Numbered from the stretch's first letter, positions 1,942-30,203 are shown. The stretch is 32,000 nucleotides of DNA from Pyrodictium occultum (GCF_001462395.1 NZ_LNTB01000001.1:1290001-1322000); one strand, 5' to 3'. A program made the numbers and translations. Notes: generated from the letters alone by a model not told the origin.

Positions 1942-1963
1942 CCCGTGAGGGAGGTGGTATACG

Positions 1964-2626
1964 ATGGCCCGCATGGCTATGGTTATAGACCTTAACCGCT
2001 GTGTCCAGTGCCAGGCCTGCGTCATAGCATGTATACGCGAGAACGTTATGAGGCAGAGTGGCGAGGGCCTCGAACTGCCCGAGGGTAATAGCATCTTCTA
2101 TGCGCGCACCAAGCCCGTCGAGATGCCTGTCGAGGGCGAGCCACTATACAAGACCACCTACTTCATACAGTGTATGCACTGCGAGAACGCCCCCTGCGCC
2201 ATCGCATGCCCCACCGGAGCCACCTACATAACCAAGAACGGTGTGGTGATGCTGGACCACAGGAAGTGCATAGGCTGTAGAGCCTGCGTTATAGCCTGTC
2301 CCTACGGCGCTAGAACAGTGTATCGCGGCAGGGTGCTCACCGGCTGGGTTCCGGCGAGCAGGGAGGCGCTCGCAGTAGGCTATCCCGATAAGTGCACGTT
2401 CTGCATACACCGTGGGGGAGAGGGCTCTAGCAACTGGGTACCAGCCTGCGTCGAAGCCTGCGCCTTCAACGCCAGGGTCTTCGGCGACCTGGACGACCCT
2501 GATAGCGAGGTGGCGAGGCTAGTTAGGAGCGGTAAGGCTGTGACGCTGGCACCGGAGCTGGGCACCAGGCCCAAGCTCTTCTTCATACCTCCCCAGAGGG
2601 TCCCGGCCGTACCCCGTAGGAGGTGA
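1964..2626 (+). CDS. 4Fe-4S ferredoxin-type electron-transfer subunit (PsrB/NrfC/DmsB-like)
   Basis: 220 aa with four Cys clusters: CVQCQACVIAC, CMHCENAPCAIACP, CIGCRACVIACP, CTFC...CVEAC. A GGAGGTG Shine-Dalgarno site at 1949-1955 sits about 8 nt before the ATG. Confidence 0.9.
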   Translation: MARMAMVIDLNRCVQCQACVIACIRENVMRQSGEGLELPEGNSIFYARTKPVEMPVEGEPLYKTTYFIQCMHCENAPCAIACPTGATYITKNGVVMLDHRKCIGCRACVIACPYGARTVYRGRVLTGWVPASREALAVGYPDKCTFCIHRGGEGSSNWVPACVEACAFNARVFGDLDDPDSEVARLVRSGKAVTLAPELGTRPKLFFIPPQRVPAVPRRR

Positions 2627-2631
2627 GCACC

Positions 2632-3876
2632 ATGGTCGAGGAGAGGGCTGAGCCGGCAATCGCCAGGGGGAGGCTCGGCGCAGCCGGCTATACGCTCCTA
2701 GGCGTGGGCGCGGCGTTGACGCTACTAATGCTCTATGGGATATATGCTTACCAGACACTGAGCAAAGCGTCTCCGCTGCACGCACTAGTGCCCTGGGGGA
2801 TAATGGTTACAGGCTACGCGTTCTTCGCGATATCCAGCGGCGGGGTGTTCGACGCCCTCGCGATAAGGCTTGCGGTCTACTGTGAGAGGGAGGCGCTGCC
2901 GCTGGCGCGTAAGACCCTCTGGCTCTCACTAGCCCTACTAATACCCGGCATAGTGCTGGTATTCGCAGACCTTACCCACGTAATGCACGCCTCCTGGATA
3001 TACCTTGGATTCAACCCCTCGTCGAGGATAGCATGGAACGGTATACTCTACATAATCTATGCCGTGTTCCTGGTGGCAGCGCTGGTCTACGCCATAGCCC
3101 GTGGAGAGGGGGCGCTCACGGGGCTGGGGGGCCGCGCGCTGCTGGTAGGAGGGCTGCTGGCGAGCCTAATCCTTGAGTACAACCTGGCCATGGCCTTCGG
3201 CCAGAACCTGGCGGTGCCGGGCTGGTTCGCGGCCCCGCTGGGGGTGCTCAACATAGCGCTGGCCTTCCTGCTAGGCGCCGCCTGGACTGGGATAGGGATA
3301 GGGGAGATAGCGGTTAAGCTCACGGCGCTCCCGAGGGAGAAGTGGCGCGAGTGCTGTATCCACGGGGTCTCCAAGGAGCTCGCCGGCATGGCGGTGGCTG
3401 TAGGCTTCCTGGCGGCCTGGACGCTAGTACAGCAGTACGAGGGCTGGGGGCTATCCAGGCAGGCGGCCTCCATGCTCGCCGGGGGCAGCGTGGCATGGCT
3501 CTTCTGGCTCAGCGTGGCCTTCGCCGTCGCTGCTCCGATAGCGCTGGGGCTCTACGCTGGCGCTAGAAGGAGCAGAGCCGCCATGTTCACGGGCTCGGTG
3601 CTAGCAATAGTCGGCGGCTTCCTCATGCTCCACTCGCTGGTGGCGGCAGGCCAGGTGGCCCGGCTTGAGGCCCTGCCAGGCTACCATGGGCTAGCCGCAG
3701 CCGCTCTGGGCGGCGGCTTCGAGTCCGAGGCGCTCCACGAGCTGCTGTCAAACAGCGTGGAGGCGGCGGCCTTCGTCGGCGGCTTCGGCCTCTGGCTCCT
3801 CTTCTACGTGGCGGGGCTGCGGCTGTTAGCGGTGGAGCCCGGCGAGAAGCCGCGCCGGATACTCGTGTTCAGGTAG
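2632..3876 (+). CDS. NrfD/PsrC-type integral-membrane anchor subunit
   Basis: About 415 aa consisting almost entirely of hydrophobic helices. ATG 2632 is preceded by AGGAGGTGA (2617-2625). The alternative GTG at 2623 overlaps the TGA of the FeS gene. It is third in a Psr-like A-B-C gene order. Confidence 0.8.
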   Translation: MVEERAEPAIARGRLGAAGYTLLGVGAALTLLMLYGIYAYQTLSKASPLHALVPWGIMVTGYAFFAISSGGVFDALAIRLAVYCEREALPLARKTLWLSLALLIPGIVLVFADLTHVMHASWIYLGFNPSSRIAWNGILYIIYAVFLVAALVYAIARGEGALTGLGGRALLVGGLLASLILEYNLAMAFGQNLAVPGWFAAPLGVLNIALAFLLGAAWTGIGIGEIAVKLTALPREKWRECCIHGVSKELAGMAVAVGFLAAWTLVQQYEGWGLSRQAASMLAGGSVAWLFWLSVAFAVAAPIALGLYAGARRSRAAMFTGSVLAIVGGFLMLHSLVAAGQVARLEALPGYHGLAAAALGGGFESEALHELLSNSVEAAAFVGGFGLWLLFYVAGLRLLAVEPGEKPRRILVFR

Positions 3877-10027: not shown

Positions 10028-11671
10028 TTAAGGCTTTCCCCGCCTCTCCTGCCTCACCCCTATCCCAGGTATCCTGTTAACCATGTGGACAAGGTCGAGG
10101 CCCCTTACCTCCGAGTAGCCTGGCCCGGGCTCGCCGCCCAGGAGCCTCCCGAAGCCCTCCCGCAGCGCGTCGTCAACGCTCTCCGCCACCTCCTTCATCA
10201 GCTTGCCCCTGAACATGTCCAGCCTCCCGGCGAGCGCTACTAGGAGGTGGAGCTGCCCCTCCTCCACCAGCTGCTCGTTGGACTCGAGGTCCAGGGGCTC
10301 CTCGAGCCCCCGGGCTACGAGCCAGGAGCCCCGCAGCCTCGGCTTCTCCAGCCTCGGCGTCTCGGCCAGCAGCCTCCTGGCCGGGGGCCTGTAGGCGGCG
10401 TAGCTTCTCCTCCCTACGGCTAGCCTCCTGGCCTCGCTGGTCGCGTCGCGGGCCCGGTAGTCCTCCATGACTATTACCGTGTCGGCGGAGGCTATGAGGG
10501 GGAGGGAGCCGCTGGAGACTATCACCAGGGAGACCCCCTTCTCGGCCATGGAGGCGGCCTGCTCGGCTATCGTGGTGACCGTCTTCCTCCGTATCAGGGG
10601 CTCGGCGCGCTCGTCGTAGAAGAGCAGGTTCGTCGCCGAGGTGTCCTCGTCTACGAGTATGAGCCTGGCCCCCGCCTCCACAGCCTCCTGCACCGCGGCC
10701 GCCATGCTTGTAGCCCCGCTCGCGTCCCGAGTGGTGAAGCAGCCCGTGTCCCTGCCGCCGGGGAGGCTGTGGATGAAGCTCGATATGTCCACGCACTCCA
10801 CGCTCCTCCCGTCCTCCGCTCGGACCTTGACGGCCTCCCTTATCGTCACAACCCTCTCCCTGCCGTCGCCGGGCACGTGGTTGTAGATGCCGCTCTGTAT
10901 AGCCTCCAGCAGCGTCGTCTTCCCGTGGAAGGCCGTCCCCGCTATCACCGTGACACCCCTGCGGACGCCCATACCCGTCACCGGCCCCAGGCTGGTCTCG
11001 ATCTCCACCCGGAGGCTCGGCGGCGACTCGAAGGGCACAGCGCCGGGGAGTGGGTCCTCGCAGCCCCCGCAGCGCCTGGGCAGGATGCTCCCATCCCCCA
11101 CGAAGGAGACGAGCCCCATGCCGGGGAGCCTGGAGCGTATCTCCTCCTGCAGTCTCCACGCCTCCACGTGGCGTCTCAGCCCCTCCATGTCCACCCTCAG
11201 CGCCTCCTCTACGGCGCGGGGCAGCCTCTCCAGGAGAAGCTCCTCGGCCGCGTCGCCGAGGACCCGGCGCCTCCTGCTGGGCAGCCCCGCCCAGACGCGG
11301 AGGACCAGCCCATCCCTCCCCAGCTCAGCGCCGCTCCTCCGCAGCATCACCGGCCCGGGCCGAGGCACCGCGAGGAGCCCACTGTGGCCCTCGCCGAGCC
11401 TCGCTGAGTAGCGGCGGAGCGCCTGGTGGAGCCTCCGGTAGATGTAGTCAGCGGCCGCCACCGGGTGCTCGAGCGCCCACCGGGGCAGCCCCGGCCTGGC
11501 CTCTATCCTCACAACGCTCGGCGGCGCGAAGGGGTCCCCCTGCACCCTCACGACGCGGATGAGGAGGCCCCGGACCCTCTCCTCGGCGCCCCTGAGCTCC
11601 CTATACGCCTTGTAGCCCCGCCCGTCTATCACGCGGAGCACGCGGCTGATGCTAGCGCCCCTGGCAGCCAA
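10028..11671 (-). CDS. Predicted ABC-class ATPase (COG3044 / ABC_ATPase family, function unknown)
   Basis: N-terminal VIDGRGYKAYRELRG...VQGDPFAPPS and Walker-A-like GVTVIAGTAFHGKTTLLEAIQSGIYNHVPGDGRE match my memory of this family. LILVDEDTSATN looks like a Walker-B region. Confidence 0.85.
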   Translation of the reverse strand: MAARGASISRVLRVIDGRGYKAYRELRGAEERVRGLLIRVVRVQGDPFAPPSVVRIEARPGLPRWALEHPVAAADYIYRRLHQALRRYSARLGEGHSGLLAVPRPGPVMLRRSGAELGRDGLVLRVWAGLPSRRRRVLGDAAEELLLERLPRAVEEALRVDMEGLRRHVEAWRLQEEIRSRLPGMGLVSFVGDGSILPRRCGGCEDPLPGAVPFESPPSLRVEIETSLGPVTGMGVRRGVTVIAGTAFHGKTTLLEAIQSGIYNHVPGDGRERVVTIREAVKVRAEDGRSVECVDISSFIHSLPGGRDTGCFTTRDASGATSMAAAVQEAVEAGARLILVDEDTSATNLLFYDERAEPLIRRKTVTTIAEQAASMAEKGVSLVIVSSGSLPLIASADTVIVMEDYRARDATSEARRLAVGRRSYAAYRPPARRLLAETPRLEKPRLRGSWLVARGLEEPLDLESNEQLVEEGQLHLLVALAGRLDMFRGKLMKEVAESVDDALREGFGRLLGGEPGPGYSEVRGLDLVHMVNRIPGIGVRQERRGKP

Positions 11672-11839: not shown

Positions 11840-11903
11840 AGGCCGCCGGGGCCCCGGCGCGAGCAGCGAGTTTCTCAGCCAGGCTAGCGAGCAGGTCCAG
11901 CCG

Positions 11904-12413
11904 GTGCACGGCCAGGGCTTCTTCTACGTGGGCTACCGCTACATAGCCTACTACCTCGTCTTCGACTACATAGACCCCCTCGGCTACTACGACGCCGTGC
12001 TGAGGGACGAGAGGCTCTACGAGGAGGAGACCACCAAGCTCTACTACAACATGCAGGAGCTGGTGGACCAGGAGGAGGTCGTGGTCAACGGGGAGAGGGT
12101 GAGGCCGAGGGTGGAGATGGTTGATATAGGGTTCCGGGGGAGCAGGAGCAGGGTCTTCATAGTCTTCGCCCTCCGGTTCCGGGCCCCGCTCCGGAGGGGC
12201 CGGAACGTCTACGAGAACAGGTACGAGCCCGAGGAGATAGAGTACAGCTACGAGGCCTACTGGGTCTTCCCGCCGGGCTCCAGGGTGCTCTCGGTCGACA
12301 TGGGCCCGGGGAGCGAGGACTGGGACATTGTCGGGGAGAGCACGCTGGCGATCTACGGCCGGCGCGGCGGCCGCACCGGGGGCTATGAGAGGATAGAGTT
12401 CCAGCTCCCCTAG
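11904..12413 (+). CDS. Hypothetical protein (about 170 aa, Tyr/Glu-rich)
   Basis: From GTG 11904 the translation is protein-like (GFFYVGYRYIAYYLVFDYIDPLGYYD...YERIEFQLP). The upstream part of the track ORF (11649-11903) is a Pro/Gly/Arg shadow that overlaps the ATPase start. Confidence 0.55.
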   Translation: MHGQGFFYVGYRYIAYYLVFDYIDPLGYYDAVLRDERLYEEETTKLYYNMQELVDQEEVVVNGERVRPRVEMVDIGFRGSRSRVFIVFALRFRAPLRRGRNVYENRYEPEEIEYSYEAYWVFPPGSRVLSVDMGPGSEDWDIVGESTLAIYGRRGGRTGGYERIEFQLP

Positions 12414-13258
12414 CCCCCGGCCTCCACGTAGACCCTAACCTCCCTCGGCACCAGCCTGCCCGCTCTCCGGAGCGCCTCGGCCCCGAGGAGGGCCCCACCG
12501 CCGTCATCCATGTAGTATGCCTCGAGCCTCCCGGCGCCCGGGTCGGCGTAGACGTAGAGGGTGCCCCCACCGCCCCTGCACACCACGGCGACCCTCGTGT
12601 GGAGGGCCAGCGCGTCGTCAACGATATCCATGCAGGGCTTATCCCCCGCCCTTACCTCCACCGCCCTCCCCCTGGAGGAGAGCGCTGCAAGAGCGAGGAC
12701 ATTGAACGTGTCCGAGAGCCTCAGCCCCCTTACACGCAGCATCTCCATGAGCTCCTCTAGGTCCTCCTCCCCCGCAGCCTCCACGGCCTCCCCGGGGCCT
12801 GCCGCGGGCCCCGCCTCCTGCTCCGCCGGCCGCGCGGCGGCCTCCCCGGGGGCGGGCTGGGGGCCGCCGGCCCCCTCTCCACGCCCGACCCCCGCGAGAA
12901 CGGCCCGGAGCCTCTCCAGGCCCCCGGGCACGACGGCCTCCGGCCTCTCCTCGGCATCCACTGCCACCTGGTGCTCGGTCAGCTCTATAATCTCCACCAC
13001 GCCCCGCCTATCATCCGCGCGCCTGGCCAGGAGCTCTAGGCACTCCTCTCCAGCGGCCACGGCGCCGCCCGGGGCGGCGGCTATGCACGCCAGCAGGCTA
13101 GGCGAGGCCTCCAGGTAGACCTGGAGCCCCTCTGGCGTGTAGTAGACGAGCCTCAGCCCCTCTTTCCCGAGCCCGCCGAGGGCCTCCGCGATGGCTTCCC
13201 TCAGCGTGCTGGGCCCGAGCTGTATGAATCCCCTGGTCCTCCCTCTCGAGACGAACAT
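12410..13258 (-). CDS. Hypothetical two-domain protein with Ala/Pro/Glu/Gly-rich linker; C-terminal PATAN/DUF4388-like module (by eye)
   Basis: 282 aa with an ATG start. The linker is GEGAGGPQPAPGEAAARPAEQEAGPAAGPGEAVEAAGEE. The C-terminus, VVCRGGGGTLYVYADPGAGRLEAYYMDDGGGALLGAEALRRAGRL, resembles the DUF4388 core. Confidence 0.65.
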   Translation of the reverse strand: MFVSRGRTRGFIQLGPSTLREAIAEALGGLGKEGLRLVYYTPEGLQVYLEASPSLLACIAAAPGGAVAAGEECLELLARRADDRRGVVEIIELTEHQVAVDAEERPEAVVPGGLERLRAVLAGVGRGEGAGGPQPAPGEAAARPAEQEAGPAAGPGEAVEAAGEEDLEELMEMLRVRGLRLSDTFNVLALAALSSRGRAVEVRAGDKPCMDIVDDALALHTRVAVVCRGGGGTLYVYADPGAGRLEAYYMDDGGGALLGAEALRRAGRLVPREVRVYVEAGG

Positions 13259-13426: not shown

Positions 13427-13864
13427 CTAGTGCACCACCTCGACGCCCAGGATCTCGCTCACCCTGCCAGAGCGCTCTATGATGGCCGTGTCGAAGGTAG
13501 CTATGGAGAGGCAGCCGAGCGACAGCGCGGCCAGGAGGTGGAGCAGGCTGCCAAGCCTAAGCCGGATGAGCCCCCCGTAGAGCTGGGCCTCCCGCACAAT
13601 TCTGTTGTAGTCCGGGTCCCTTACCTCGGCCCCCGCGCGGCGTATAGCGTAGTCTGCTAGCGCGTAAACCCCCTCAAGGCCCAGGCCGGGCCTCCTGGAG
13701 GCGATTAGCGCGACAAGCTCCGCCCGGGCCAGGTGGGAGGATACGAGGGCCCTGCCACCCCTCCGGAACTCCTCAAGCAGCTCCAGGGCGCGCTCGCGGA
13801 AAGCACCGTGCTCCTGGGCTAAGGCGAGCAGGAAGGTTGTGTCAAGGTAGATGCAGTCCCTCAA
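13427..13864 (-). CDS. vapC: PIN-domain ribonuclease (VapC-like toxin)
   Basis: IYLDTTFLLAL (first Asp), SSHLARAELV (Glu), ATFDTAIIE (distal Asp). 145 aa. A small upstream ORF sits 9 nt away. Confidence 0.8.
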   Translation of the reverse strand: MRDCIYLDTTFLLALAQEHGAFRERALELLEEFRRGGRALVSSHLARAELVALIASRRPGLGLEGVYALADYAIRRAGAEVRDPDYNRIVREAQLYGGLIRLRLGSLLHLLAALSLGCLSIATFDTAIIERSGRVSEILGVEVVH

Positions 13865-13873
13865 GTGGGGTAG

Positions 13874-14122
13874 TCACCCTCTCTCCCGCTCAGCGGCAGC
13901 CTCCAGGGGCTTGGGGGGCTCGACCGGGGGCCCGCCCTCCCTCATGTAGCGCTCCACGAGCCTCCTCGACTCCTCGAGCGCCCTGACAACGTCTACCAGG
14001 TGGACGGCGCCTGAGACCGCTATAATCCTCTCCGCGTGCTCCCGGCTACCCGCTACCCCGTGCTCGACGAGCCTGAGCGCAAGCCTCCGTATAAGCCGTT
14101 GAAGCCCATCGCCGCCGGCCAT
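13874..14122 (-). CDS. Putative cognate antitoxin (VapB position), fold not recognised
   Basis: An 82-aa ORF immediately upstream of the PIN gene on the same strand. I see no clear RHH or AbrB motif. Confidence 0.5.
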   Translation of the reverse strand: MAGGDGLQRLIRRLALRLVEHGVAGSREHAERIIAVSGAVHLVDVVRALEESRRLVERYMREGGPPVEPPKPLEAAAERERG

Positions 14123-14148: not shown

Positions 14149-15003
14149 CTAGCTGAGCAGCAGCGCGAACACCGTGGCCAGGGGGACTATCCCGGCCAGG
14201 GCGGCTGCCGTCATGTCGGCGCCCAGCAGGTAGGCTGACGCGAAGTAGATGACTGCTACCGAGGAGCCTATAATCACCTTGAGCATGGTCTTAAGCCTTC
14301 TCAGAGAGTTGGGGCCAGCGGTGATGGGGGCTGCCGCGGCCCTCTCAGCCTCTGCGGGGGCTGCAGCCTCTTCGGCCACCTTCTCCCCTACAGAGGGCTC
14401 CGCAGCGGCTTTCACAGCCTCCACCCGTGACACCGAGAGGCTGAGCATGGTGCCGCAGTTGGGGCAGGGCTTCCTGTTGAGCACGTGGCCGCAGAAGGGG
14501 CAGACGGGCTGTGTAAAGGGTGTAGTGTGCCCGCAGCTAGGGCACGTGGCTGTGTAGACGTCGAGCACTACCCCGCAGGAGGGGCACCGGAGGGGTTTGC
14601 CCTCCACAAGCCTGCGGACCGGGTCGAGGAGGGAGGACACCCCCGGGTACTCGCCGAGCGCTATGAACGTGAAGCCCCCTCCCACGTCCGCCACGAGGAC
14701 AGCTCTGCCCTTGTACTCGCCGAGCGCTACCCTCGCTGCTATCTCGCCCCCGGGGATACGCTGGCGGAACGCCTGGAGGTAGGCCGAGGCAATAGCCGCC
14801 AGCTCGTCCGCAGCCGCCTCGTAGTCCGGGTTCCTAGCGTTGACGGCGTAGGTGAAGCCCTCGTACGCGGCCACAGTGACATCTATGCCGTCGACGGAGG
14901 AGGCCAACGCTATAAGCCTTGTGAGAACCTCCTCCGGCGACTCCGCTTTGGCCCTCTCCTGCGCTGGCACGGACAAGGAGCCCGGCTCCCTAGCTTGGTG
15001 CAC
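14149..15003 (-). CDS. Roadblock/LC7-like domain + double zinc ribbon + C-terminal membrane anchor
   Basis: Roadblock-like segment: EEVLTRLIALASSVDGIDVTVAAYEGFTYAV...GRAVLVADVGGGFTFIALGE. Zinc ribbons: CPSCG...CPSCG and CPFCG...CPNCG. The C-terminus is hydrophobic (LKVIIGSSVAVIYFASAYLL...IVPLATVFALLL). The start is uncertain (GTG 15003 or downstream GTG 14970). Confidence 0.75.
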   Translation of the reverse strand: MHQAREPGSLSVPAQERAKAESPEEVLTRLIALASSVDGIDVTVAAYEGFTYAVNARNPDYEAAADELAAIASAYLQAFRQRIPGGEIAARVALGEYKGRAVLVADVGGGFTFIALGEYPGVSSLLDPVRRLVEGKPLRCPSCGVVLDVYTATCPSCGHTTPFTQPVCPFCGHVLNRKPCPNCGTMLSLSVSRVEAVKAAAEPSVGEKVAEEAAAPAEAERAAAAPITAGPNSLRRLKTMLKVIIGSSVAVIYFASAYLLGADMTAAALAGIVPLATVFALLLS

Positions 15004-15885: not shown

Positions 15886-17391
15886 TTGCCGACAGGCTCC
15901 GTGACGCCTGGCCCGCTGCTAGGCGGCGGCCCGGGCGAGCCTCTAGTGGTCCCCCTCGACGCGGAGAGCATACACTCGCTCATAAGCGACTTCAAGCGTG
16001 TGCTCTCCAGGATAGAACTTGTGGAGGAGGTCGGCGACGGGTACGTCGTTCTCCGTGTCCCCCGGCGCTTCGGCATCCTGAGGCTCGGCTCCAGGCCTAT
16101 GCGGCTGGACATGCACGTCTATAGGCTCGAGAACGCGCTGGTGGTCCTCCTGGGCCGCGGCGCCGACTCCCTGGTCCTGGTGGTAAGTATAGCTGATGTG
16201 GGCGAGGGCGTGCACATAGTTGTCAGCGGCGGTGGCAGCGGCAGGCTATCCCCGGCGGCGGGTAGCCTGGTTAGGGGCGTGAGGGAGGCTATAGCGGGTG
16301 TAGTCGAGGAGGCCTGGCCCACGGTGAGCCTCTCCGGCGCCGACGACGAGCTGGCCGCTGCGGGCGTGCAGGACGCGGCGCTGGTGTTCTATGACAGCTT
16401 CACCCCCGTGAAGAACGTGCTCGTCGAGGCGGCGTACCGTGTCATAGCCGCCCTGGGCCCCGGCGAGTACCTGGCGGAGATACAGGGTATGCTCCACGAG
16501 TACTACTACCTCGCCCGCCTGGTCATCCGCGGCCGCAGCGTGACCGGCGTCTACGCCGAGATGGACGGGCACAGCGTCCGGGGCGAGGACGCGCTGAAGA
16601 CCGCGTGGAAGCCCCCAAGCCACCGCGTCCGCCTACTCGCCTGGGCCCTCGGAGGCCAGCGCCATAGGGTGAGGGTCAACGCCCCCCAGCCGGTCTACGA
16701 GGAGGGGCGGCACGCGGTCTACAGGCTGTGGCCCGGCGGGCGCCCCGAGTACGGCGGGCTGACAGTCTCCACGTACATCGTAGGCGACGGCTACGAGTAC
16801 GCCGTGGTGGACCCGGCGGGGCCCGCGGAGTGGAGCCAGGCTGTACGCGGCCTCGTCGGCGACATGGAGCAGCTGCGCCTCATAGTGGCCGGGGATGCGA
16901 GCGCATCCACCTACCCCCTGCTTAGGGAGCTCTACGCCGCCTCCCCCGCCCAGGTGCTGGCCCCGCCCTACGCCTGGGCCCAGCTAGCAGGCCTCCTAGA
17001 CCAGCCGGACCGCGTGTCGGCCGTACCCCTAACCGGGGGCCGCGTCAGGCTGGGGCGGAGCGAGCTACACGTAATACCGGCCAGCTGCTGCGGCGGCATG
17101 CTGTCCCTCTACGACCAGGCCTCGAGGACGCTCTTCACAGGCCCCGTGCTGGGCTTCCTGCTTCCACCCGGCCTGCCCTACGCCGGGGACCCCGTGCTCC
17201 GGCGTGCCCTCCGCGCCTACCTGCGGAGCACGCTCACGCCCCAGGCCCTGGGCCGCTGGCTGAAGACGGTCCAGGGCCTGGAGGTTGAGAGGCTGGCCCC
17301 GCGCTACGGCCCCCTCGTTGAAGGAGTGGAGCGTGTAAAGTCGCTGCTCGGCGAGGCGGCGGAGCTCGTGGCGGAGGGTGAGGCGGAGTGA
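15886..17391 (+). CDS. Multidomain hypothetical: N-terminal domain paralogous to that of the 20104 gene, central PATAN/DUF4388-like module, C-terminal degenerate metallo-beta-lactamase-fold (flavodiiron/ODP-like) domain
   Basis: The central segment LARLVIRGRSVTGVYAEMDGHSVRGEDALKTAW resembles the DUF4388 core. The C-terminal blocks YAVVDPAGP...LRLIVAGDASASTYPLL...LHVIPASCCGGMLSLYDQASRTLFTGPVLG...LAPRYGPL follow MBL block order, but HxHxDH is replaced. The start is uncertain (TTG 15886, GTG 15901 or GTG 15943). Confidence 0.7.
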   Translation: MPTGSVTPGPLLGGGPGEPLVVPLDAESIHSLISDFKRVLSRIELVEEVGDGYVVLRVPRRFGILRLGSRPMRLDMHVYRLENALVVLLGRGADSLVLVVSIADVGEGVHIVVSGGGSGRLSPAAGSLVRGVREAIAGVVEEAWPTVSLSGADDELAAAGVQDAALVFYDSFTPVKNVLVEAAYRVIAALGPGEYLAEIQGMLHEYYYLARLVIRGRSVTGVYAEMDGHSVRGEDALKTAWKPPSHRVRLLAWALGGQRHRVRVNAPQPVYEEGRHAVYRLWPGGRPEYGGLTVSTYIVGDGYEYAVVDPAGPAEWSQAVRGLVGDMEQLRLIVAGDASASTYPLLRELYAASPAQVLAPPYAWAQLAGLLDQPDRVSAVPLTGGRVRLGRSELHVIPASCCGGMLSLYDQASRTLFTGPVLGFLLPPGLPYAGDPVLRRALRAYLRSTLTPQALGRWLKTVQGLEVERLAPRYGPLVEGVERVKSLLGEAAELVAEGEAE

Positions 17392-17966
17392 AGGGCCCGT
17401 ACCTTGACCTCCGGGGATACCGTGGCTTCATCCCCTACAGGGAGCTGGAGAGGAGCATGGAGGGTGTGAGGGAGCTGCGGCTCGCGGTAGACCCCGAGGC
17501 GGTGCCCCTCGTGGAGGCGTGGGCCCGGCTCCAGGGGCTCCAGGCGAGCCTGGCGGAGGACGGTACCCTGCGGCTGGCCAGGAGAGGTGACAAGCAGGGC
17601 GGCGCCAAGGAGAAGGTGGAGCGGGAGGCTGCTGCCCCGCCGCTCTGGGTCGACCATGGCTCCTGGGACAGCGAGCTCTCGAAGCGCCTATCTGATGCGG
17701 GCTACATAGTCAACACCGTCATCCAGGCCCCCGTCCTCTACCGGGGCCACCCCTCCGGCTTCAACTACGATAGGCTCCGGGGCCGCTCGGCCCTGCTCCG
17801 TGTAACCATGCCAGACAGCGACTACTTTCTGGCCGTTCGCGGCGGCAGGGTGGTGGCGGCCGCCCAGCTGGGGAAGCCCCTGAGCCCCCGCCAGGCGGAG
17901 ACGCTGCTGGCCACGCTCCAGTCCAGCTCGGAGGCCCTCCTAACGGTCTACAATACATCCGTCTAG
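17388..17966 (+). CDS. Hypothetical: Cys-less TusA/SirA-like N-terminal domain + PATAN/DUF4388-like C-terminal module (by eye)
   Basis: The GTG start overlaps the upstream stop (GTGA). The N-terminus, LDLRGYRGFIPYRELERSMEGVRELRLAVDPEAVPLVEAWARLQG, parallels TusA LDxRGxxCPxP...D. The C-terminus has DYFLAVRGGRVVAAAQLGKPLSPRQAETLLATL. Confidence 0.65.
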   Translation: MKGPYLDLRGYRGFIPYRELERSMEGVRELRLAVDPEAVPLVEAWARLQGLQASLAEDGTLRLARRGDKQGGAKEKVEREAAAPPLWVDHGSWDSELSKRLSDAGYIVNTVIQAPVLYRGHPSGFNYDRLRGRSALLRVTMPDSDYFLAVRGGRVVAAAQLGKPLSPRQAETLLATLQSSSEALLTVYNTSV

Positions 17967-18098: not shown

Positions 18099-19955
18099 AT
18101 GGTGACGCTGGTGGCCCTCGCCAGGACGCTCCTGCTGCTCGCCATCCTGGCCGCGGCGCTCTATCTCCTCAAGCCCGTCCACGCCGCGGAGGCCGGGTCT
18201 AGCACCCCCCAGCCCTCGTGGAGCGTCATCCTGGGATACAGCGTCACCAGGCTAGCCTGGAACACCTCTAGCGACCACTTGTTAGTGGGCACTAGCGGCG
18301 GCGCCGTCCTGCTCGACCGGTCCGGCCACAAGGTGTGGGGGCTGCTGCCCAAGGAGCCGGTCTACGACGTGGCGTTCTCCCCCGACGGGAGGCTTGTGGC
18401 AGTGGCCGCTGGGAGGATATGGCACTACGTATACGTGCTCGACGCTGCCACCGGGAGGGAGGCCGCGAGGATATTCAGCATATGGGGCGACCTGGCGAGC
18501 GTCTGCTGGGTCTCCACCGGCTTCCTCGTCGCGGGGGAGTCGGGGAGGCCGAGGCTCCACCTCTACAAGCTGGTCCAGGGGCCGACGGGGTCCCTGGAGC
18601 CGCGCAGCCTGGCGGTGATAAGCCTAGGGGATGGGGACTATGGCGGCGTGGCCTCCATAGCCTGCATACCCGGGAAGGAGCAGGTGGTTGTAGGCATGCG
18701 CAACGGCTACATAGCCCTCGTCTCCCTCATTTCCGGCAAGCCCGTCTGGGTGTCGCCCAGCCTCGGGGGGCAGCTGGCCGGCATGGCTCTCGGCGGCGAT
18801 GTTGTGGCGGCAGCCGTCATCGACAAGAGCCACGGTGTCTCAAGGCTCTACCTGCTATCGCTCGCTAGAGGGGAGGTTATGGCCTCCTATAGCGTCGAGA
18901 CGCTTATCACCTCGATAGCGGTCACGGGCAACTACCTCATAGCGGGTGATCTAGGCGGCGACCTCTACCTCTTCCAGTACGGCCGAGGAGGCCTCGAGCT
19001 GGTAGACATAGACAGGGTCTCGCTTGCCCCGATAACAGCTATCGCGGTCAGCCCCGACGGCTCCCAGCTGGCCATAGGCGTGGAGAAGGGTGTCGTAGCC
19101 TCGTTCAACGCCGCCGACTTCATCTACGAGAGGCTTGCCAAGATAGTGTCTGGGGTGAGCACCGTCTACACCCTGATCAGCGTAGCCATTGATGATAGGC
19201 CCGTGGTGTTGTTCAGGACTGTCATAGACCTGCCGTCCGTGCTTTCGCTGAACGTGGGCAGCTATAATGTATCCTTCGACGCGGTCCTGGAGCAGGTTAG
19301 GCTGCCCTGCAACGTCGTGCTTGAGGTGAACGTGGTGGAGCTGAAGGAAATGGACACCAATATGACTGTAGCAACTATGCTGCTCGACAAGCCTCTAGAG
19401 ATATCCTGCCACGGCATAAAATACGGCTACCAGGAGTCTAATGTGAGCGTCCATGGCCGGGCGGTGCTAGCCCTCTCCGAGACCAGTAGCCTGCGGCTCC
19501 TCGGCGACAGGGAGCATGTACTGGTTAGGCTGCAGGCAGCGCCCTACATCGCGGTGTACTACGGGGGCCGGCCCGGCAGGCTGGCCTCCGAGATAAGGGT
19601 GGATAACCTGGTCCCGGCCACAGTCATACTAGCCAAGTACTTCAGCCGCATCCAGGGCCTAGTGGCGCCGGCCCCCGGAGCAGCTACAAGGACGGTAACA
19701 ACCACTGTCACCACTACCGTGACGAGGACGGTGACCACGACCCCGGCTGGAGCCTGCGGGGGTGCAGCCACGCCTCCGGCCAGCTCGGCCTCCAGGGGGC
19801 CCGCGGCCAGCGCGGCCACCAGCGCCGCCGGGGGAGCCTGGTCCGGCAGCAGGCTGGCCGCGGCAGGGATCGTGGCGGCCCTGACGGCTATAGGCCTTCT
19901 CATGCTCGTAGCGGGTCATAGGAGGAGGGGCGGCAGGAGAGGCGGCGCCGCTTAG
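18099..19955 (+). CDS. Surface beta-propeller (WD40/YVTN-like) protein with signal peptide, Thr-rich stalk and C-terminal transmembrane anchor
   Basis: N-terminal signal LLLLAILAAALYLLKPVHA. Repeats such as VYDVAFSPDGRLVAVAAG and ITAIAVSPDGSQLAIG. Sequons NTS, NVS, NMT, NVS. Stalk TRTVTTTVTTTVTRTVTTT. TM helix LAAAGIVAALTAIGLLMLVAG followed by the basic tail HRRRGGRRGG. Confidence 0.85.
   Translation: MVTLVALARTLLLLAILAAALYLLKPVHAAEAGSSTPQPSWSVILGYSVTRLAWNTSSDHLLVGTSGGAVLLDRSGHKVWGLLPKEPVYDVAFSPDGRLVAVAAGRIWHYVYVLDAATGREAARIFSIWGDLASVCWVSTGFLVAGESGRPRLHLYKLVQGPTGSLEPRSLAVISLGDGDYGGVASIACIPGKEQVVVGMRNGYIALVSLISGKPVWVSPSLGGQLAGMALGGDVVAAAVIDKSHGVSRLYLLSLARGEVMASYSVETLITSIAVTGNYLIAGDLGGDLYLFQYGRGGLELVDIDRVSLAPITAIAVSPDGSQLAIGVEKGVVASFNAADFIYERLAKIVSGVSTVYTLISVAIDDRPVVLFRTVIDLPSVLSLNVGSYNVSFDAVLEQVRLPCNVVLEVNVVELKEMDTNMTVATMLLDKPLEISCHGIKYGYQESNVSVHGRAVLALSETSSLRLLGDREHVLVRLQAAPYIAVYYGGRPGRLASEIRVDNLVPATVILAKYFSRIQGLVAPAPGAATRTVTTTVTTTVTRTVTTTPAGACGGAATPPASSASRGPAASAATSAAGGAWSGSRLAAAGIVAALTAIGLLMLVAGHRRRGGRRGGAA
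19686..19742 (+). repeat. Thr/Val codon low-complexity tract (stalk/linker) inside the beta-propeller gene
   Basis: aca agg acg gta aca acc act gtc acc act acc gtg acg agg acg gtg acc acg acc encodes TRTVTTTVTTTVTRTVTTT. Confidence 0.8.
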
Positions 19956-20103: not shown

Positions 20104-20889
20104 TTGGCCCCTGTTAAGAGGAGCGCGGTGCTCGACGTAGCCGCCCCCTGCGACCGGGTTATACGGCTGCTATCCTCCCGCGACCCCTCCTCCTTCCTGG
20201 CGGGCGCGGCCAGGCTCAGCGGCCAGGGAGAGAAGCGCGGCGTGAAGGTGCTTACCTTCGCCTCCGCCAGGTACGGCAGCCTGCGGGTGGAGGCCGAGGA
20301 GAGGGTCGAGGCTGACCGCCTGGAGCTGCTCCTCCGGGGCGACCTCCACGGCTCCGTGCGGGTTGTCGGGGTCAGCAAGGGCAGCGGGTGCCGCCTCTAC
20401 CTCGAGGCTGAGGGGGAGGGTAAGCTCGTCGAGGAGTACGGCGGTGACGCCCTCTCGCGCGTAATAAACCGTATAATGGTCACGCTGGTCAGCGTGTTCC
20501 CCGCCACTCTGCAGCCCCGGGTCTCCGGGGGCAGGCTCGGGGACTACTTCATCGAGCTCCTGGAGCTCATAAACCTCGCCCAGGGGGGTAGCGCGAGGAT
20601 CCAGGGCAGGCTACGCAGTATAGCAGTGGACCTCAGCCGCGGGGTCGTGATAAACTCGGAGGGGCTGGGCGAGGAGGAGGCTAGCACGATAGCGAGGGCC
20701 CTCTCCGACGCCTACTCTAGGCTTGTTGAGGCCCTGGGTATTCTCGGTGATGGCGAGGTTTCACGCCTCGTAGTATCGGGTGACAAAAGCCTTATAGTGG
20801 CCAATGTAGCGGGTAAAATATCTGTGGCCACCGTGCTGCAGCAGGGTGGCGGAGAGGAGGCCGGCGCCTCCGGCTCCGGGGCGTCGTAG
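20104..20889 (+). CDS. Hypothetical: N-terminal domain paralogous to the 15886 N-terminus (possibly SRPBCC-like) + C-terminal Roadblock/LC7-like domain
   Basis: The C-terminus, IAVDLSRGVVINSEGLGEEEASTIARALSDAYSRLVEALGILGDGEVSRLVVSGDKSLIVANVAGKISVATVL, fits the Roadblock pattern. The N-terminus, VLDVAAPCDRVIRLL...LRVEAEERVEADRLELLLRGDLHGSVRVVGVS, parallels the 15886 product. TTG start. Confidence 0.7.
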   Translation: MAPVKRSAVLDVAAPCDRVIRLLSSRDPSSFLAGAARLSGQGEKRGVKVLTFASARYGSLRVEAEERVEADRLELLLRGDLHGSVRVVGVSKGSGCRLYLEAEGEGKLVEEYGGDALSRVINRIMVTLVSVFPATLQPRVSGGRLGDYFIELLELINLAQGGSARIQGRLRSIAVDLSRGVVINSEGLGEEEASTIARALSDAYSRLVEALGILGDGEVSRLVVSGDKSLIVANVAGKISVATVLQQGGGEEAGASGSGAS

Positions 20890-20895
20890 AGGCTG

Positions 20896-21723
20896 ATGCC
20901 CCAGTCTCCCAGCCGCCCTTGGAGGCTGATGAGCTTGTCAAAGCCGTTTGTTATGAGGCTGCTGCGTAGGCGCCCGCTCAGCTACACTGTCCTAGTCCTC
21001 TTCATACTAGACCGCTCCCTGAGCATGATGGAGCCCAAGACCTATGACTACCGCGGCAAGTGGTTCCACCTAGTGGACCTGGTTGAGGCTCTCCTACGCA
21101 GGCTGGGCCGCAGCAGGATGGCCCCCGCCTTCCGGGTCGGCTTCGTCTGGTTCAGCGACGACGTCGAGGTGGTTGAGTGGAACGGCGAGGTCTACTTCCC
21201 CGTCGCCCCGAGGAACGTGGCGCTCGACGTGTTCCGTAAGAGTGCGGAGAGGAACCGGCCCTACGGCATGACCGCCATGGCTGACGCGCTGGAGGCGGCG
21301 GCGTCCGTGGTCGAGCGGTATGTGGACCAGTTGACGCTGCCGCCGGAGAAGTATGGGACTCTCTTCCTCTTCACCGACGGCAGGGAGACCAGGAGAACGG
21401 TGGACGACGTGGTGGTGGCAGCGGAGAAGATAACCATGGAGCTGGCGGAGAGGATGAAGAAGCTCAACGAGAGGAACCGTATAGGCCTCGCAACCATAGC
21501 CCTCGGCCAGGACGCCGACAGGGAGACGCTGAGGGATATAGCGAGCTTCCTGCGTGAGGCGCAGCGCCGTGTCCTCGAGGACCGGGGGCTCCTGGACCTG
21601 GTGGACCCGCCCTACCACGAGAAGATGTTCATAGACGCGCCCGCCGATGACCGTATAACGCGCGAGTGGGAGGAGGCTGTGAGGAGGTTCGTGGAGAGGC
21701 TGAGCGAGACGGCTACGGTCTAG
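20896..21723 (+). CDS. von Willebrand factor type A (vWA) domain protein with intact MIDAS
   Basis: MIDAS elements are LDRSLSM (DxSxS), GMTAMADAL (Thr) and LFLFTDGRE (Asp). There is no signal peptide. It starts 6 nt after the upstream gene. Confidence 0.85.
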   Translation: MPQSPSRPWRLMSLSKPFVMRLLRRRPLSYTVLVLFILDRSLSMMEPKTYDYRGKWFHLVDLVEALLRRLGRSRMAPAFRVGFVWFSDDVEVVEWNGEVYFPVAPRNVALDVFRKSAERNRPYGMTAMADALEAAASVVERYVDQLTLPPEKYGTLFLFTDGRETRRTVDDVVVAAEKITMELAERMKKLNERNRIGLATIALGQDADRETLRDIASFLREAQRRVLEDRGLLDLVDPPYHEKMFIDAPADDRITREWEEAVRRFVERLSETATV

Positions 21724-21733
21724 GCCTTCTAGG

Positions 21734-22789
21734 GTGTCAGCCCCCATGGCTAGGCTCAGCCTGGTTTTCCACAGCGGCTTCGTGGTGTCCACTGATAGCG
21801 ATGAGTGGGAGCTGCTCGATAGCGGCGGCGAGGCCGACATATACCGGGCTAGGCTCCGGGGCGGGCAGAGCTACATAGTCAAGCTGTATACGCCCAAGTA
21901 CACGGGGCTCGCCCGGCCGGTGGAGCGCATCGCTGAGATGCTTAGGAGGCTCACTAGGCTCCGCAGGAGGTGTGGGGGGTCGATACCCGAGAGCCTCTGG
22001 GCCCGCGGCCTCCCCGTAGCCGTGGGAGCCCTCGAGGACAGGGCCGTGCTAGTGTTCCGGGAGGTGGAGGACTTCACTACGGTATCCGAGCTGGTGAACA
22101 ACCCGGAGCTGCTGGGGGAGTACCTCGAGAGGCACAGCCTGGAGGAGAGGAGGCGGTTCGCCCGCGAGGTGCTGCGGGGCCTCGCCTGCCTAGACGCGGC
22201 CGACATAGTCCATGTCGACGCTACGACGCCCAACGCGGCCTACGGCAGGGTCGGGGAGACTAGAGGGGTATTCCTCTACGACTACGAGACGGCGGGCATT
22301 ATAGGCTCCGAGGACTACCCCCTCACCGTTCTCCCCGCCCGCGACGCCAACCTCCTCCCCGTGGAGGTGCTGGCCGAGGCCGGGGTTGAGATACAGCCCC
22401 CGGACCCGGGCGAGCTGCCCATACCCCTCCAGCCCTCCCGGCTCCCCAGGCCCATCCTCTCCTGGATAGCCTGGACCCCGACCTGGTACGGCCTGCAGCT
22501 GGTGGCGCTGGTCTACAGCGGCCTCAGTCCCTTCCACGGCCTCCCCGTGCTGAGCAGCAGCTACTGGCTAGAGATAGTGGAGGCCGAGGCCGCGCAGGGC
22601 TACCCGGGCGGCTGGCCCCCGCTGAGCATGGTGGACCAGGGCTACCTGGACCAGACCGAGTACCTGGAGCTGAGCAAGCTGTGGAGAAGCCTTGGCGAGG
22701 ACGTGGTGGAGGCGATGTACCACGTCTTCATCGTCGACCCGGGCGAGCGGCGGGGCATGCCGAGCTACCCACTCTCGTCAATATTCTAG
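21734..22789 (+). CDS. Eukaryotic-like Ser/Thr protein kinase-like protein
   Basis: Gly-rich loop LLDSGGEADIY. IVKLY carries the catalytic Lys. Catalytic loop IVHVDATTPNAAY (HxDxxxxN). LYDYETAG sits in the DFG position. YGLQLVALVYSGLSPF resembles subdomain IX. It starts 10 nt after the vWA gene; alternative start ATG 21746. Confidence 0.8.
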   Translation: MSAPMARLSLVFHSGFVVSTDSDEWELLDSGGEADIYRARLRGGQSYIVKLYTPKYTGLARPVERIAEMLRRLTRLRRRCGGSIPESLWARGLPVAVGALEDRAVLVFREVEDFTTVSELVNNPELLGEYLERHSLEERRRFAREVLRGLACLDAADIVHVDATTPNAAYGRVGETRGVFLYDYETAGIIGSEDYPLTVLPARDANLLPVEVLAEAGVEIQPPDPGELPIPLQPSRLPRPILSWIAWTPTWYGLQLVALVYSGLSPFHGLPVLSSSYWLEIVEAEAAQGYPGGWPPLSMVDQGYLDQTEYLELSKLWRSLGEDVVEAMYHVFIVDPGERRGMPSYPLSSIF

Positions 22790-28512: not shown

Positions 28513-30198
28513 CTACGAGCCCCCGCCGCCCTGGTCCTCGTAGCAGTAGTGCTTCCGGGCCTCCTCCAGGCTTATCCTCCCCTCGGCTAGGTCGCGCTCG
28601 ACCAGCTCCCTGGGCCTGGCGCAGGGGTCGCCATAGCCCCCGCCGCCTGGGGTCTCGATGTAGATAGTGTCGCCCCTACTCAGCACCAGGGTTGTCTTAG
28701 AGGCCAGCTCCAGCCTCTCGCCGCTCCCCCTCACGAGGAGGGCGCGGAAGGGGGCGCCGGGGCCGCCGCCCTCCAGGCCCCAGGGCCTGGTCCTCGAGCG
28801 CTCCGCATACACTGTCGCCACCACCCCATCCTCGAGGACGGTTATCGCGCGTACAACCCCCAGGCCGCCCCTCCAGCGGCCCGGGCCCCCGCTCCCTGGC
28901 CTCAGCTCGTACCTCCTGAAGCGCAGTGGATACTCCGCCTCCGCCACCTCCACCGGGGTGTTGAGGGTGTTGGTCATGTTGGTCTGGACCCCGTCGACCC
29001 CGTCGCAGCAGGGCCTAGCGCCAGCGCCGCAGCCTATGGTTTCGTAGAACACCCAGCCTCTCCCGGCGAGTATCAGGTTGCTCATCGTCCCGCAGCTTGC
29101 CGCCGGCACCCTGCCCGGGAACGCCTCGGCGAGGGCCCGGAGCACGACGTCCGCTATCCTCTGGGAGGTCTCCACGTTGCCCCCGCCGACCGGGGCCGGC
29201 GGCCTGGGGTTCACCAGGGTGCCCTCGGGCGCGTGGATCTCGGCGACGCGGTAGAAGCCGCTGTTCATGGGCATATCGGGGTCGAGCACGGTCTTCAGGG
29301 CGTAGGTTGTAGCTGCCACTGTGACCCCGTAGACGGCGTTGAGGGGCTCCTCGACCTGGGGGCTGGTGCCGGAGAAGTCTACCCTCACCCTTGACCTGGT
29401 GACCTCGAGCCGGGCCCGTATCCGGAGCAGCCTGCCGGAGGCGGTCTCGAGGCCGTCCTCCGCCTCGTAGACTCCCCCGCCGTGCTCCTCCACGAGGCGG
29501 GCCAGCACGCTGCGGGTGTAGCGCTCAGTATAGCCGAGTATCTCCCTCCAGGCCTCCAGCAGCGTGCCGGTGCCGTAGCGGCCCGCGAGCTCCCTTATCC
29601 TCTCGGCGCCCCTCCTCAGCGCGGCCAGTTGTGCCATCGCGTCGCCCCTCACCCTCCCCGGCTCCCTGACGTTGGCCTCCAGGAGCCGGAGCACGTCCCA
29701 GCGGACACGGCCCGCCTCCACCAGCTTGACCGGCGGGACCACGAGGCCCTCGTCCCTGAGGCTCCTGGCCCCGGGGCCTATGCCCCCGGGCACGCAGCCC
29801 CCCACGTCCACGTAGTGGGCCTTGCACGCGACGTAGGCCGCCAGCCTCCCGCCGGCGTGGACGGGCGCCAGCATCATGACGTCGTTGATGTGAGTGCCGG
29901 TGAGGTACGGGTCGTTGGACACCACCACGTCCCCGGGGCCGGGCTCGACGCCGAGCCTCTCCAGCTCCCCGAGCACCGCCCTGGCGCCGACGGGCATGCT
30001 GCCCAGGTGGACGGGTATGTGCTCCGCCTGCGCCACCAGCTCGCCCTCGGGGCTGAGGACCGCGCAGGAGAAGTCCAGCCGGTCCCGTATATTCGGGCTC
30101 ATTGACGCGTTGCGGAGCACAACCCCCATCTCCTCGGCGGCCGCTATAGCGGCGTGCCTCACCACCTCCACGGTAACCCGGTCGACCATCCCCGCCAC
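28513..30198 (-). CDS. hyuB: Hydantoinase B / 5-oxoprolinase family subunit
   Basis: Motifs SPNIRDRLDFSCAV, DPYLTGTHINDV, GGGNVETSQRI and TPGGGGYGDP are typical of HyuB/oxoprolinase B. It starts 5 nt after the hyuA stop. Confidence 0.9.
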   Translation of the reverse strand: MAGMVDRVTVEVVRHAAIAAAEEMGVVLRNASMSPNIRDRLDFSCAVLSPEGELVAQAEHIPVHLGSMPVGARAVLGELERLGVEPGPGDVVVSNDPYLTGTHINDVMMLAPVHAGGRLAAYVACKAHYVDVGGCVPGGIGPGARSLRDEGLVVPPVKLVEAGRVRWDVLRLLEANVREPGRVRGDAMAQLAALRRGAERIRELAGRYGTGTLLEAWREILGYTERYTRSVLARLVEEHGGGVYEAEDGLETASGRLLRIRARLEVTRSRVRVDFSGTSPQVEEPLNAVYGVTVAATTYALKTVLDPDMPMNSGFYRVAEIHAPEGTLVNPRPPAPVGGGNVETSQRIADVVLRALAEAFPGRVPAASCGTMSNLILAGRGWVFYETIGCGAGARPCCDGVDGVQTNMTNTLNTPVEVAEAEYPLRFRRYELRPGSGGPGRWRGGLGVVRAITVLEDGVVATVYAERSRTRPWGLEGGGPGAPFRALLVRGSGERLELASKTTLVLSRGDTIYIETPGGGGYGDPCARPRELVERDLAEGRISLEEARKHYCYEDQGGGGS

Positions 30199-30203
30199 CC
30201 CTC

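Follow-up and report, generated by a model that had tools for sequence, protein, structure and literature searches.

What is the role of a gene pair in which one product keeps the fold of a di-iron sensor without the residues that bind the iron, while the other resembles a sulfur carrier without a single cysteine? This question is raised by positions 15,886 to 17,966 of a 32,000-nucleotide stretch of the Pyrodictium occultum genome (GCF_001462395.1, NZ_LNTB01000001.1:1290001-1322000), which was analysed at its full length and is referred to here as the window. Gene A (15886..17391, + strand) was called as an open reading frame of 501 amino acids with a TTG start and an in-frame GTG at 15901. 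Gene B (17388..17966, + strand), called in the same way, starts with GTG and encodes a two-domain, cysteine-free partner protein of 192 amino acids that is identical to the NCBI protein CF15_06920 of Pyrodictium occultum. We show here that protein A carries a domain of the SRPBCC type and a domain of the ODP family, that the metal ligands of the latter and the cysteine of B are lost, and that the order of the two genes is conserved. In our judgement the chances are about even that A and B are a non-enzymatic, cofactor-free pair of sensor and adaptor that feeds a TerY-P-like phosphorylation switch in archaea of the Pyrodictiaceae type. Comparisons between genomes draw on seven A homologues on eight contigs (L001-L008) and on one genome per species (L009-L020); among these, L004 duplicates L003 and L009 duplicates L008.

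The C-terminal domain of A (domain 3, residues 263-490, 16672..17355, + strand) is assigned, from Pfam and profile searches, to the ODP family, a flavodiiron-like metallo-beta-lactamase fold, here without di-iron ligands. The assignment is made because the Pfam ODP model PF19583 scores 33.4 bits on residues 294-475, above its curated cut-off of 27.2, because the relatives match the same model (all 11 from the first search round, with E=3.7e-22 at best, and 3 out of 5 that are more distant; 14 of the 16 family members scanned), and because the profile of the A family matches solved ODP structures over their whole chain length (6qrq, E=2.3e-32; 6qnm, E=1.4e-24), with flavodiiron proteins following to E=1e-14. 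Over its last 230 residues, A is clearly homologous to, and collinear with, ODP (Treponema denticola TDE2498; 6qnm/6r9n and 6qrq/6qwo). Like ODP, domain 3 comes without the flavodoxin domain of flavodiiron proteins; a search for a flavodoxin domain in A gave no match, and only about 10 residues follow the metallo-beta-lactamase domain. Unlike ODP, it is fused behind two other domains and has genes for von Willebrand factor A (VWA), kinase-like and PP2C proteins as neighbours instead of chemotaxis genes, none of which were seen in domain scans of the window or of the related loci.

To read the metal site, the ODP domains of the family were aligned with two ODP structures, with a canonical stand-alone ODP from L002 and with residues 1-250 of E. 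coli NorV, in a sequence 100% identical to PDB entries 6etb/4d02. The NorV ligands are H79, E81, D83, H84, H147, D166 and H227. The ODP ligands were deduced by aligning the three ODPs to NorV, where they read H/D/D/V/H/D/H at these positions. Protein A of P. occultum reads D337/S339/S341/T342/C401/P420/Y474. All six ODP iron-ligand positions are substituted, no histidine is left at any ligand position, and the motif itself reads AGDASAST. The first-pass annotation of this DNA, which had been made without any database search, described the C-terminal half of A as an ODP/flavodiiron-type metallo-beta-lactamase domain with a lost metal motif and proposed to inspect the ligand positions; the profile match and the alignment agree with it, and the six ODP ligands prove not to be conserved in P. 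occultum. It had also named the sequence GDASAS (residues 336-341, 16891..16908, + strand) as a replacement of HxHxDH. The replacement stands in the alignment, but the ancestral reference is HxDxD of ODP or HxExDH of flavodiiron proteins, that is HxD/ExD(H), and not the generic HxHxDH. In the family as a whole, at least three of the six ODP ligands are substituted in every relative, so that three is the most that any of the 16 retains.

To judge from these substitutions, the ODP domain of A can no longer hold a di-iron centre, and it would therefore not sense O2 or Fe(II) in the manner of ODP. For ODP itself, the description given is that of a sensor and not of an enzyme, namely an oxygen sensor for chemotaxis (PMC7666581). 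The site lost in A is therefore that of a sensing cofactor and not a catalytic one, and the earlier view of enzyme-derived folds that have lost their catalytic or metal residues holds for the metal ligands but not for catalytic residues. The domain is not decaying and seems to be still under selection, because a mean pairwise identity of 35% is kept and L416, P427 and P428 are invariant in 15 members (P0022, the most divergent one, was left out). A partial precedent for ligand loss in this fold is found among the flavodiiron proteins, which share the metallo-beta-lactamase fold and the block order with A (E=1e-14 to 4e-6) and include the core of the cyanobacterial 'diflavin flavoprotein A 3' (6h0c/6h0d). 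There, 6h0d reads GHVNANR against the canonical HxExDH. It keeps the first histidine, whereas P. occultum A keeps none, and the loss in A is more complete. Compared with hydrolases of the metallo-beta-lactamase superfamily, A is without both HxHxDH and the downstream His/Asp metal ligands. Two further observations concern the same domain. Within residues 336-402 (16891..17100 of the window), P. occultum and its two closest relatives carry clade-specific cysteine loops, SCCGG, GSCGG and GGCGG, at the loop of the ODP histidine ligand, where other branches have arginine-rich loops. The stand-alone ODP of L002 (13564..14325, - strand, 253 amino acids), on a contig of the Pyrodictiaceae type, has all six ODP ligand residues and adjoins a peroxiredoxin gene (AhpC/Redoxin). 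The distance to the ODP fusion without ligands is about 5 kb, and canonical and ligand-less forms therefore coexist in one genome.

The domain content that had been noted for A was incomplete, since model and structure search reveal an N-terminal domain that the first-pass annotation had overlooked. The N-terminal half of the protein (residues 1-265) was modelled with AlphaFold on an alignment of 11 sequences, and the model is confident, with a pLDDT (predicted score in the local distance difference test) of 84.7 and a predicted template modelling score of 0.78. Domain 1 (about residues 18-148, 15937..16329, + strand) is modelled as an SRPBCC/START-type helix-grip fold of the CoxG kind, with strands at residues 46-118 followed by a helix at 119-143, at a pLDDT of about 90. 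In a Foldseek search of the model against the PDB, the best match of domain 1 is crenarchaeal, 2ns9 (APE2225 of Aeropyrum pernix, Pfam COXG; E=1.8e-4, 22% identity), with which it has the helix-grip fold in common. TTHA0849, TcmN ARO/CYC and PYR/PYL are further matches among dozens of SRPBCC structures with a probability of ~1.0. Domain 1 differs from these proteins in its fusion to two more domains and in the lack of a significant Pfam match, as the Pfam models of the SRPBCC clan gave no match at E<=10 to the A family or to its consensus.

Between these two domains lies a small alpha/beta domain that no Pfam family matched (domain 2, about residues 149-262, 16330..16671, + strand). In the AlphaFold model it consists of a helix followed by the order beta-alpha-beta-beta-beta-alpha-beta. 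No other part of A is as well conserved: the mean pairwise identity is 50%, against 39% and 35% in the other domains, and of the 16 invariant residues of the protein 12 are found here, among them D153, P174, E181, R211, R215, T220, G221 and G233. Protein B, modelled with AlphaFold on 12 sequences (pLDDT 81.6), ends in a comparable domain (residues 86-192, 17643..17963, + strand), in which strands and helices are modelled in the same order as in A domain 2; modelled at residues 95-189, its core repeats the beta-alpha-beta-beta-beta-alpha-beta arrangement. The claim that both proteins contain a PATAN-like core had been based on one segment in each. In A, this segment is residues 211-241, the hairpin and helix at the centre of domain 2, and in B it is residues 145-177. 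In the models, both occupy the same place, a beta-hairpin plus helix within the beta-alpha-beta-beta-beta-alpha-beta domain. Both have the motif G-x-x-A-[LI], and such a hairpin and helix resembles the core of PATAN (DUF4388, PF14332).

Sequence searches were less favourable to the PATAN assignment. DUF4388 is the top-ranked Pfam match of B (residues 132-175), with E=0.055 and 14 bits against a cut-off of 25, and it is found in 2 of the 17 members of the B family, at best with E=0.014 in a relative of 62% identity. No match to DUF4388 was obtained at E<=10 in any of 16 members of the A family, and neither DUF4388 nor TusA matched the consensus sequences of the A and B families in Pfam. When the B model was searched against the PDB with Foldseek, its C-terminal domain had no significant fold match and no PATAN entry turned up among the matches of B; the search with the model of A residues 1-265 is dominated by SRPBCC matches, and domain 2 was searched only within that model. 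A profile of the N-terminal half of A compared with B gave nothing (probability 0.2%). An all-against-all hhalign comparison of domains, with column shuffling and reversal as controls, did align A domain 2, the C-terminal domain of B and the two domains of the neighbouring protein G in collinear fashion (P=0.0014-0.02), with low probabilities throughout. The values are P=0.007 for A domain 2 against the B domain, P=0.003-0.016 for A domain 2 against the G domains, with P=0.0029 for the second of them, and P=0.0014 for the two G domains against each other. These links were rejected as evidence of homology because presumably unrelated control pairs reach equal or higher values (z=7.5 for SRPBCC against Roadblock and 4.1 for SRPBCC against the B domain, with the pairs of interest at z=4.5-6.5). 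A shared PATAN-like core of A and B is thus plausible from its topology and motif; of the earlier claim, the segments and their common topological position stand, while domain models give a marginal match for B and none for A, and neither protein reaches the Pfam cut-off. PATAN domains have been described as interaction modules in signalling proteins (bioRxiv 10.1101/2021.06.11.447907).

The N-terminal domain of B (residues 1-67, 17388..17588, + strand) was assigned by model and hhalign as TusA/SirA-like, with the motif LDLRGYRGFIPY and a glycine, Gly13, in place of the cysteine. Its residues 5-65 are modelled as a beta-alpha-beta-alpha-beta-beta sandwich, which is the order of strands and helices in TusA as well, and a disordered linker (residues 68-84) follows. 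The motif LDLRGYRGFIPY, a TusA-like LDxRGxxGxxP, is nearly invariant in the B family and lies at the same place as the LDxxGxxCPxP-like motif of TusA/SirA (1dcj, PF01206), at the end of strand 1 and the start of helix 1. The essential cysteine of TusA is replaced by glycine or proline in the B family, and cysteine is absent from 17 of 17 members. Against a TusA profile of four sequences (E. coli TusA, verified against 1dcj, together with 1pav, 1je3 and 1jdq), hhalign aligned 65-68 collinear columns with P=0.001 and a probability of 22%, the best of ten domains tested, and placed TusA Cys19 opposite Gly13 of B. Pfam TusA (PF01206) reaches E=0.038 and is found in 3 of 17 B-family members; profiles of B and of its N-terminal domain found no TusA at E<=10 and nothing significant among PDB sequences; and Foldseek of the B model against the PDB had no TusA in the top 50. 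Its best matches (E>=0.1, the best being E=0.1) are small two-layer sandwiches, SMR, YhbY, MurA lobes and SepF, most of which belong to the same IF3-C-like fold class as SirA/TusA. The similarity to TusA stays below every significance threshold, and homology of the B domain to TusA is weakly supported. The TusA pattern without its cysteine that had been noted in B is seen in motif and cysteine loss, then, but as a matter of TusA homology it is sub-threshold. In the most divergent B branch, of 138-amino-acid proteins, the N-terminal domain is absent altogether. Because the whole family is without cysteine, B cannot act as a persulfide carrier of the TusA type.

Both open reading frames are real, conserved genes. 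The TGA stop of A (17389-17391) overlaps the GTG start of B (17388-17390) in the sequence GTGA; this overlap of the 501- and 192-amino-acid genes had been recorded in the first-pass annotation and is borne out by the coordinates 17388-17391. Read from the sequence, the junction (17373..17391, + strand) is GGAGGGTGAGGCGGA-GTGA, in which the Shine-Dalgarno-like purine run GGAGGGTGAGG (17373-17383) precedes GTGA by 5-15 nucleotides. An AT-rich TTAATAA lies about 85 nucleotides upstream of gene A, and a second AT-rich stretch is found between B and the next gene. Because of these stretches, A and B look like a bicistronic unit, with promoters possibly at the AT-rich sites. The A/B family is very small: in collections of billions of proteins it amounts to about a dozen sequence clusters. 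A collection of 5.8 billion proteins contains 11 relatives of A, full length and 39-69% identical; the closest of them, at 69%, have an N-terminus of equal length to that of P. occultum A. When 1.84 billion proteins were searched exhaustively with a hidden Markov model of residues 1-265, no more than 9 representatives were retrieved, and the B family is of similar size. No A relatives were found on viral contigs or plasmids when these were searched, and neither A nor B matched the PADLOC and NCBIfam models. As to the co-occurrence of the pair, which had been left as a check to be made, wherever the sequence reaches far enough past A (L001-L016 and L018, L007 being counted by direct alignment), a B orthologue comes directly after it and on its strand. 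The junction overlaps by 4 nucleotides in L008 and by 11 nucleotides in L003, and elsewhere a gap of 3-84 nucleotides separates the genes. All named hosts of A loci are metagenome-assembled genomes (MAGs) of Pyrodictiaceae/Desulfurococcales.

A and B do not stand alone, and by considering the pair only, the first-pass annotation overlooked a larger conserved cluster around it. In nine loci the order is A-B-(opposite-strand PP2C or WD40)-C-D-E, and some loci also carry F, G or H. Gene C (20104..20889, + strand, 261 amino acids) is C-terminally Roadblock/LC7-like (Pfam Robl_LC7, E=0.0046; PDB 3kye, E=0.057) and has 36-63% identity to its counterparts in L001, L002, L006 and L008. Its N-terminal half may, tentatively, be SRPBCC-like (hhalign P=0.038). 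Gene D (20896..21723, + strand, 275 amino acids) encodes a VWA protein (Pfam VWA, E=2e-7) with 67-81% identity in related loci. Against the PDB it gave no match at E<=0.1 except to the apicomplexan TRAP protein, and because only TRAP matched, no link to a characterised archaeal VWA protein is drawn. Gene E (21734..22789, + strand, 351 amino acids) has a Bud32/RIO-like protein-kinase fold, to which NCBIfam Bud32 matches below its cut-off (E=4e-6). The hallmarks are a glycine-rich loop DSGGEADIY, VxK (VK) and a catalytic loop HVDxTTxN (HVDATTPN). In the PDB, TP53RK matches with E=0.045, its HGDLTTSN aligned to vHvDvttaN, and Pfam Pkinase reaches E=0.0017 on the family consensus. From these features E looks like a divergent, atypical kinase. 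It has no above-threshold family and carries a conserved C-terminal extension of about 150 amino acids that is rich in tryptophan and proline.

The slot between B and C is occupied in P. occultum, and likewise in a Hyperthermus MAG, by a WD40 beta-propeller surface or membrane protein (18099..19955, + strand, 618 amino acids; Pfam WD40/beta-propeller families), where other loci have the opposite-strand PP2C gene. PP2C is present in 10 related loci, and the L002 protein matches Pfam PP2C_2 with E=7.6e-6. The WD40 protein, which also occurs in L008 (3358..5298), has an N-terminal hydrophobic segment, a threonine/valine-rich stalk (TTTVTTTVTRTVTTT) and, at its C-terminus, a membrane anchor. In P. 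occultum, F, G and H are found upstream of the pair, F and G on the opposite strand. Gene F (14149..15003, - strand, 284 amino acids) combines an N-terminal Roadblock-like domain, double zinc ribbons (Pfam DZR, E=2.4e-7) and a C-terminal transmembrane segment; its N-terminal domain aligns with the Roadblock domain of C (hhalign P=0.004), and in L001, L002 and L006 its orthologue is found downstream of E. Gene G (12410..13258, - strand, 282 amino acids) encodes two small alpha/beta domains of the kind of A domain 2 and has orthologues in L001, L002 and L005. The L005 member matches DUF2226 with E=6.7e-4 and DUF4388 with E=0.11. F and G are adjacent in L001 and L002, while in P. occultum a PIN pair lies between them. 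Gene H (11868..12413, + strand) was listed as an open reading frame from 11649; its true start is probably near 11868 because only the last ~190 amino acids are conserved. With 78-81% identity to proteins of 193-209 amino acids next to G in L001 and L005, H is better conserved than any other protein of the cluster, and it matched no family in Pfam or NCBIfam.

Some observations concern the wider surroundings. The PIN pair (13427..14122, - strand) consists of a PIN-domain protein of 145 amino acids (Pfam E=8.9e-7) and an upstream partner of 82 amino acids, which together look like a toxin-antitoxin pair of the VapBC type. In L006 (1155..7957), A and B lie directly downstream of large genes, one of which has a weak match to T2SSF, the platform protein of type IV pili and archaella, and the pair may be linked there to a surface filament system. 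The window begins within an operon of the Psr/Sre type (4..3876, + strand), a polysulfide/sulfur reductase with a molybdopterin oxidoreductase, a 4Fe-4S dicluster protein and an NrfD-type membrane subunit, truncated at the window start. The genes for hydantoinase/oxoprolinase A and B subunits and for a P-loop protein of the ABC_ATPase family (28513..31640 and 10028..11671, both - strand) appear to be usual genes of metabolism or housekeeping that have nothing to do with the pair.

The arrangement of D and E recalls TerY-P, which comprises a VWA protein, a PP2C phosphatase and a Ser/Thr kinase fused to a zinc ribbon and for which a role as a metal-sensing phosphorylation switch has been hypothesised (PMC11090510). 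At the loci described here, the VWA gene directly precedes the kinase-like gene, and PP2C in most related loci and a zinc-ribbon protein are added to them. In contrast to TerY-P, the zinc ribbon belongs to a membrane protein of its own and the kinase is Bud32-like and divergent, and the cluster has extra conserved genes, A, B, C, G and H, beyond TerY-P as defined in that study (PMC11090510). Within such a cluster, A would contribute the hydrophobic ligand pocket of its SRPBCC/CoxG domain, a conserved small alpha/beta interaction domain and a relic ODP metal cleft, and B a cysteine-free TusA-shaped domain and a second small alpha/beta interaction domain. The two proteins might assemble via the small alpha/beta domains, and protein G, with two such domains, and the Roadblock-like proteins C and F would probably be joined to them. 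The signal could be a ligand that binds either in the pocket of the SRPBCC domain or where the metal cleft once was, and it would be passed to the VWA protein, the Bud32-like kinase and the PP2C phosphatase, that is, to the TerY-P-like trio. Recruitment of the pair as sensor or adaptor had already been suggested; the conserved neighbourhood of VWA, kinase-like, PP2C, Roadblock-like and zinc-ribbon proteins fits this idea, and the role itself is one that we infer.

Several points weigh against a sensor and adaptor pair that acts through phosphorylation. The small alpha/beta domains of A and B match no family significantly, and the profile similarity among these domains does not exceed that of the presumably unrelated controls. 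Some relatives of A keep E-x-D and one histidine, so that a reduced metal site is possible in part of the family. The window of P. occultum contains no PP2C gene. In L003, L005 and L007, the pair occurs without nearby VWA or kinase genes, and the link to phosphorylation would thus not be obligatory. Finally, the VWA, kinase-like and PP2C proteins gave no convincing match to the TerY-P and other models of PADLOC.

A bolder version of the sensor and adaptor reading starts from the small alpha/beta domains. A, B and G together would have four copies of one such PATAN-like domain and, with the two Roadblock-like proteins, the VWA protein, the Bud32-like kinase and PP2C, could form an undescribed signalling or positioning machine specific to Pyrodictiaceae. 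The pseudo-ODP domain and the SRPBCC pocket would be its inputs, and a cell-surface structure or a membrane process would be under its control, with a logic like that by which PATAN/Roadblock modules in bacteria direct the motors of type IV pili. We consider this unlikely.

The same neighbours could also be read as a conflict system. Pair and neighbours would then be a TerY-P-like anti-virus system, with A and B as sensors of infection or as effectors instead of an input to physiological signalling. Triads of VWA, PP2C and kinase with zinc ribbons are what is called TerY-P, and modules of this kind can work by themselves against phages (PMC11090510). PADLOC gives weak matches of the kinase-like protein E to MkoA (E=3.4e-4) and mad6, the VapBC-like PIN pair lies within the P. 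occultum cluster, and the genes that flank the cluster vary between loci. However, A, B, C, D, G, H and the PP2C protein have no PADLOC match, none of the domains recognised in the system is a nuclease or another effector, and the viral contigs and plasmids searched held no copies. Gene order and high identity are kept across many Pyrodictiaceae genomes (67-81% for D, 78-81% for H), as if the cluster were vertically inherited. A role in defence thus appears unlikely to us.

Quite improbable, too, is that A has remained a metalloprotein. The former di-iron cleft would in that case bind another metal or a cluster, through Asp337 and Cys401/Cys402 in the P. occultum clade and through Glu, Asp or His elsewhere, and would sense redox state or metal. 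The cysteine loops SCCGG, GSCGG and GGCGG at the position of the ODP histidine ligand in P. occultum and its two closest relatives would be in line with this. So would the family branch that keeps E-x-D and the last histidine, as well as P0020, which keeps H-x-E-x-D. The ODP domain is also conserved, with G475 and G480 invariant in addition to L416, P427 and P428 in the set without P0022. Yet every one of the six positions varies and no candidate ligand is found family-wide; the bridging aspartate is proline in 9 of 16 family members and aspartate in only one, and in P. occultum A zero of the six ODP ligand residues are left.

That the pair serves sulfur trafficking or persulfide metabolism, as a TusA-like carrier with a metallo-beta-lactamase enzyme comparable to persulfide dioxygenase/TusA, is highly improbable: the motif and topology of the B N-terminal domain, the fold of A and an organism that respires sulfur compounds, with a Psr-type operon within the window, would suit it, but a family with no cysteine in 17 of 17 members allows no persulfide carriage and essentially excludes it, the fold of A belongs to the ODP/flavodiiron branch instead of glyoxalase II/ETHE1 and has all its metal ligands gone, and the TusA-like domain is dispensable in one B branch.

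We therefore return to A and B as a cofactor-free sensor and adaptor pair. The folds themselves are known, and pseudo-enzymes are common in signalling. What sets the pair apart is the combination of an SRPBCC domain, a small alpha/beta domain and a ligand-less ODP domain in one protein, coupled to a cysteine-less, TusA-shaped partner. In the libraries searched, ODP is the only family that this architecture matches, and its occurrence is confined to a single archaeal family. No description of this A/B architecture was found in the literature searched. The recognition of ODP as a di-iron sensor of oxygen and iron is recent, and here the fold is without its cofactor site and yet conserved. The pair, whose family is narrow, is a lead rather than a surprise. 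If the proposed reading is true, it would be a clear archaeal case in which a sensor fold has become a scaffold without cofactor, fused to a ligand pocket and locked to a partner gene. To our knowledge, almost no signal transduction has been characterised in Pyrodictiaceae, and the neighbourhood of the pair is a defined and testable candidate for signalling by Ser/Thr phosphorylation in these archaea.

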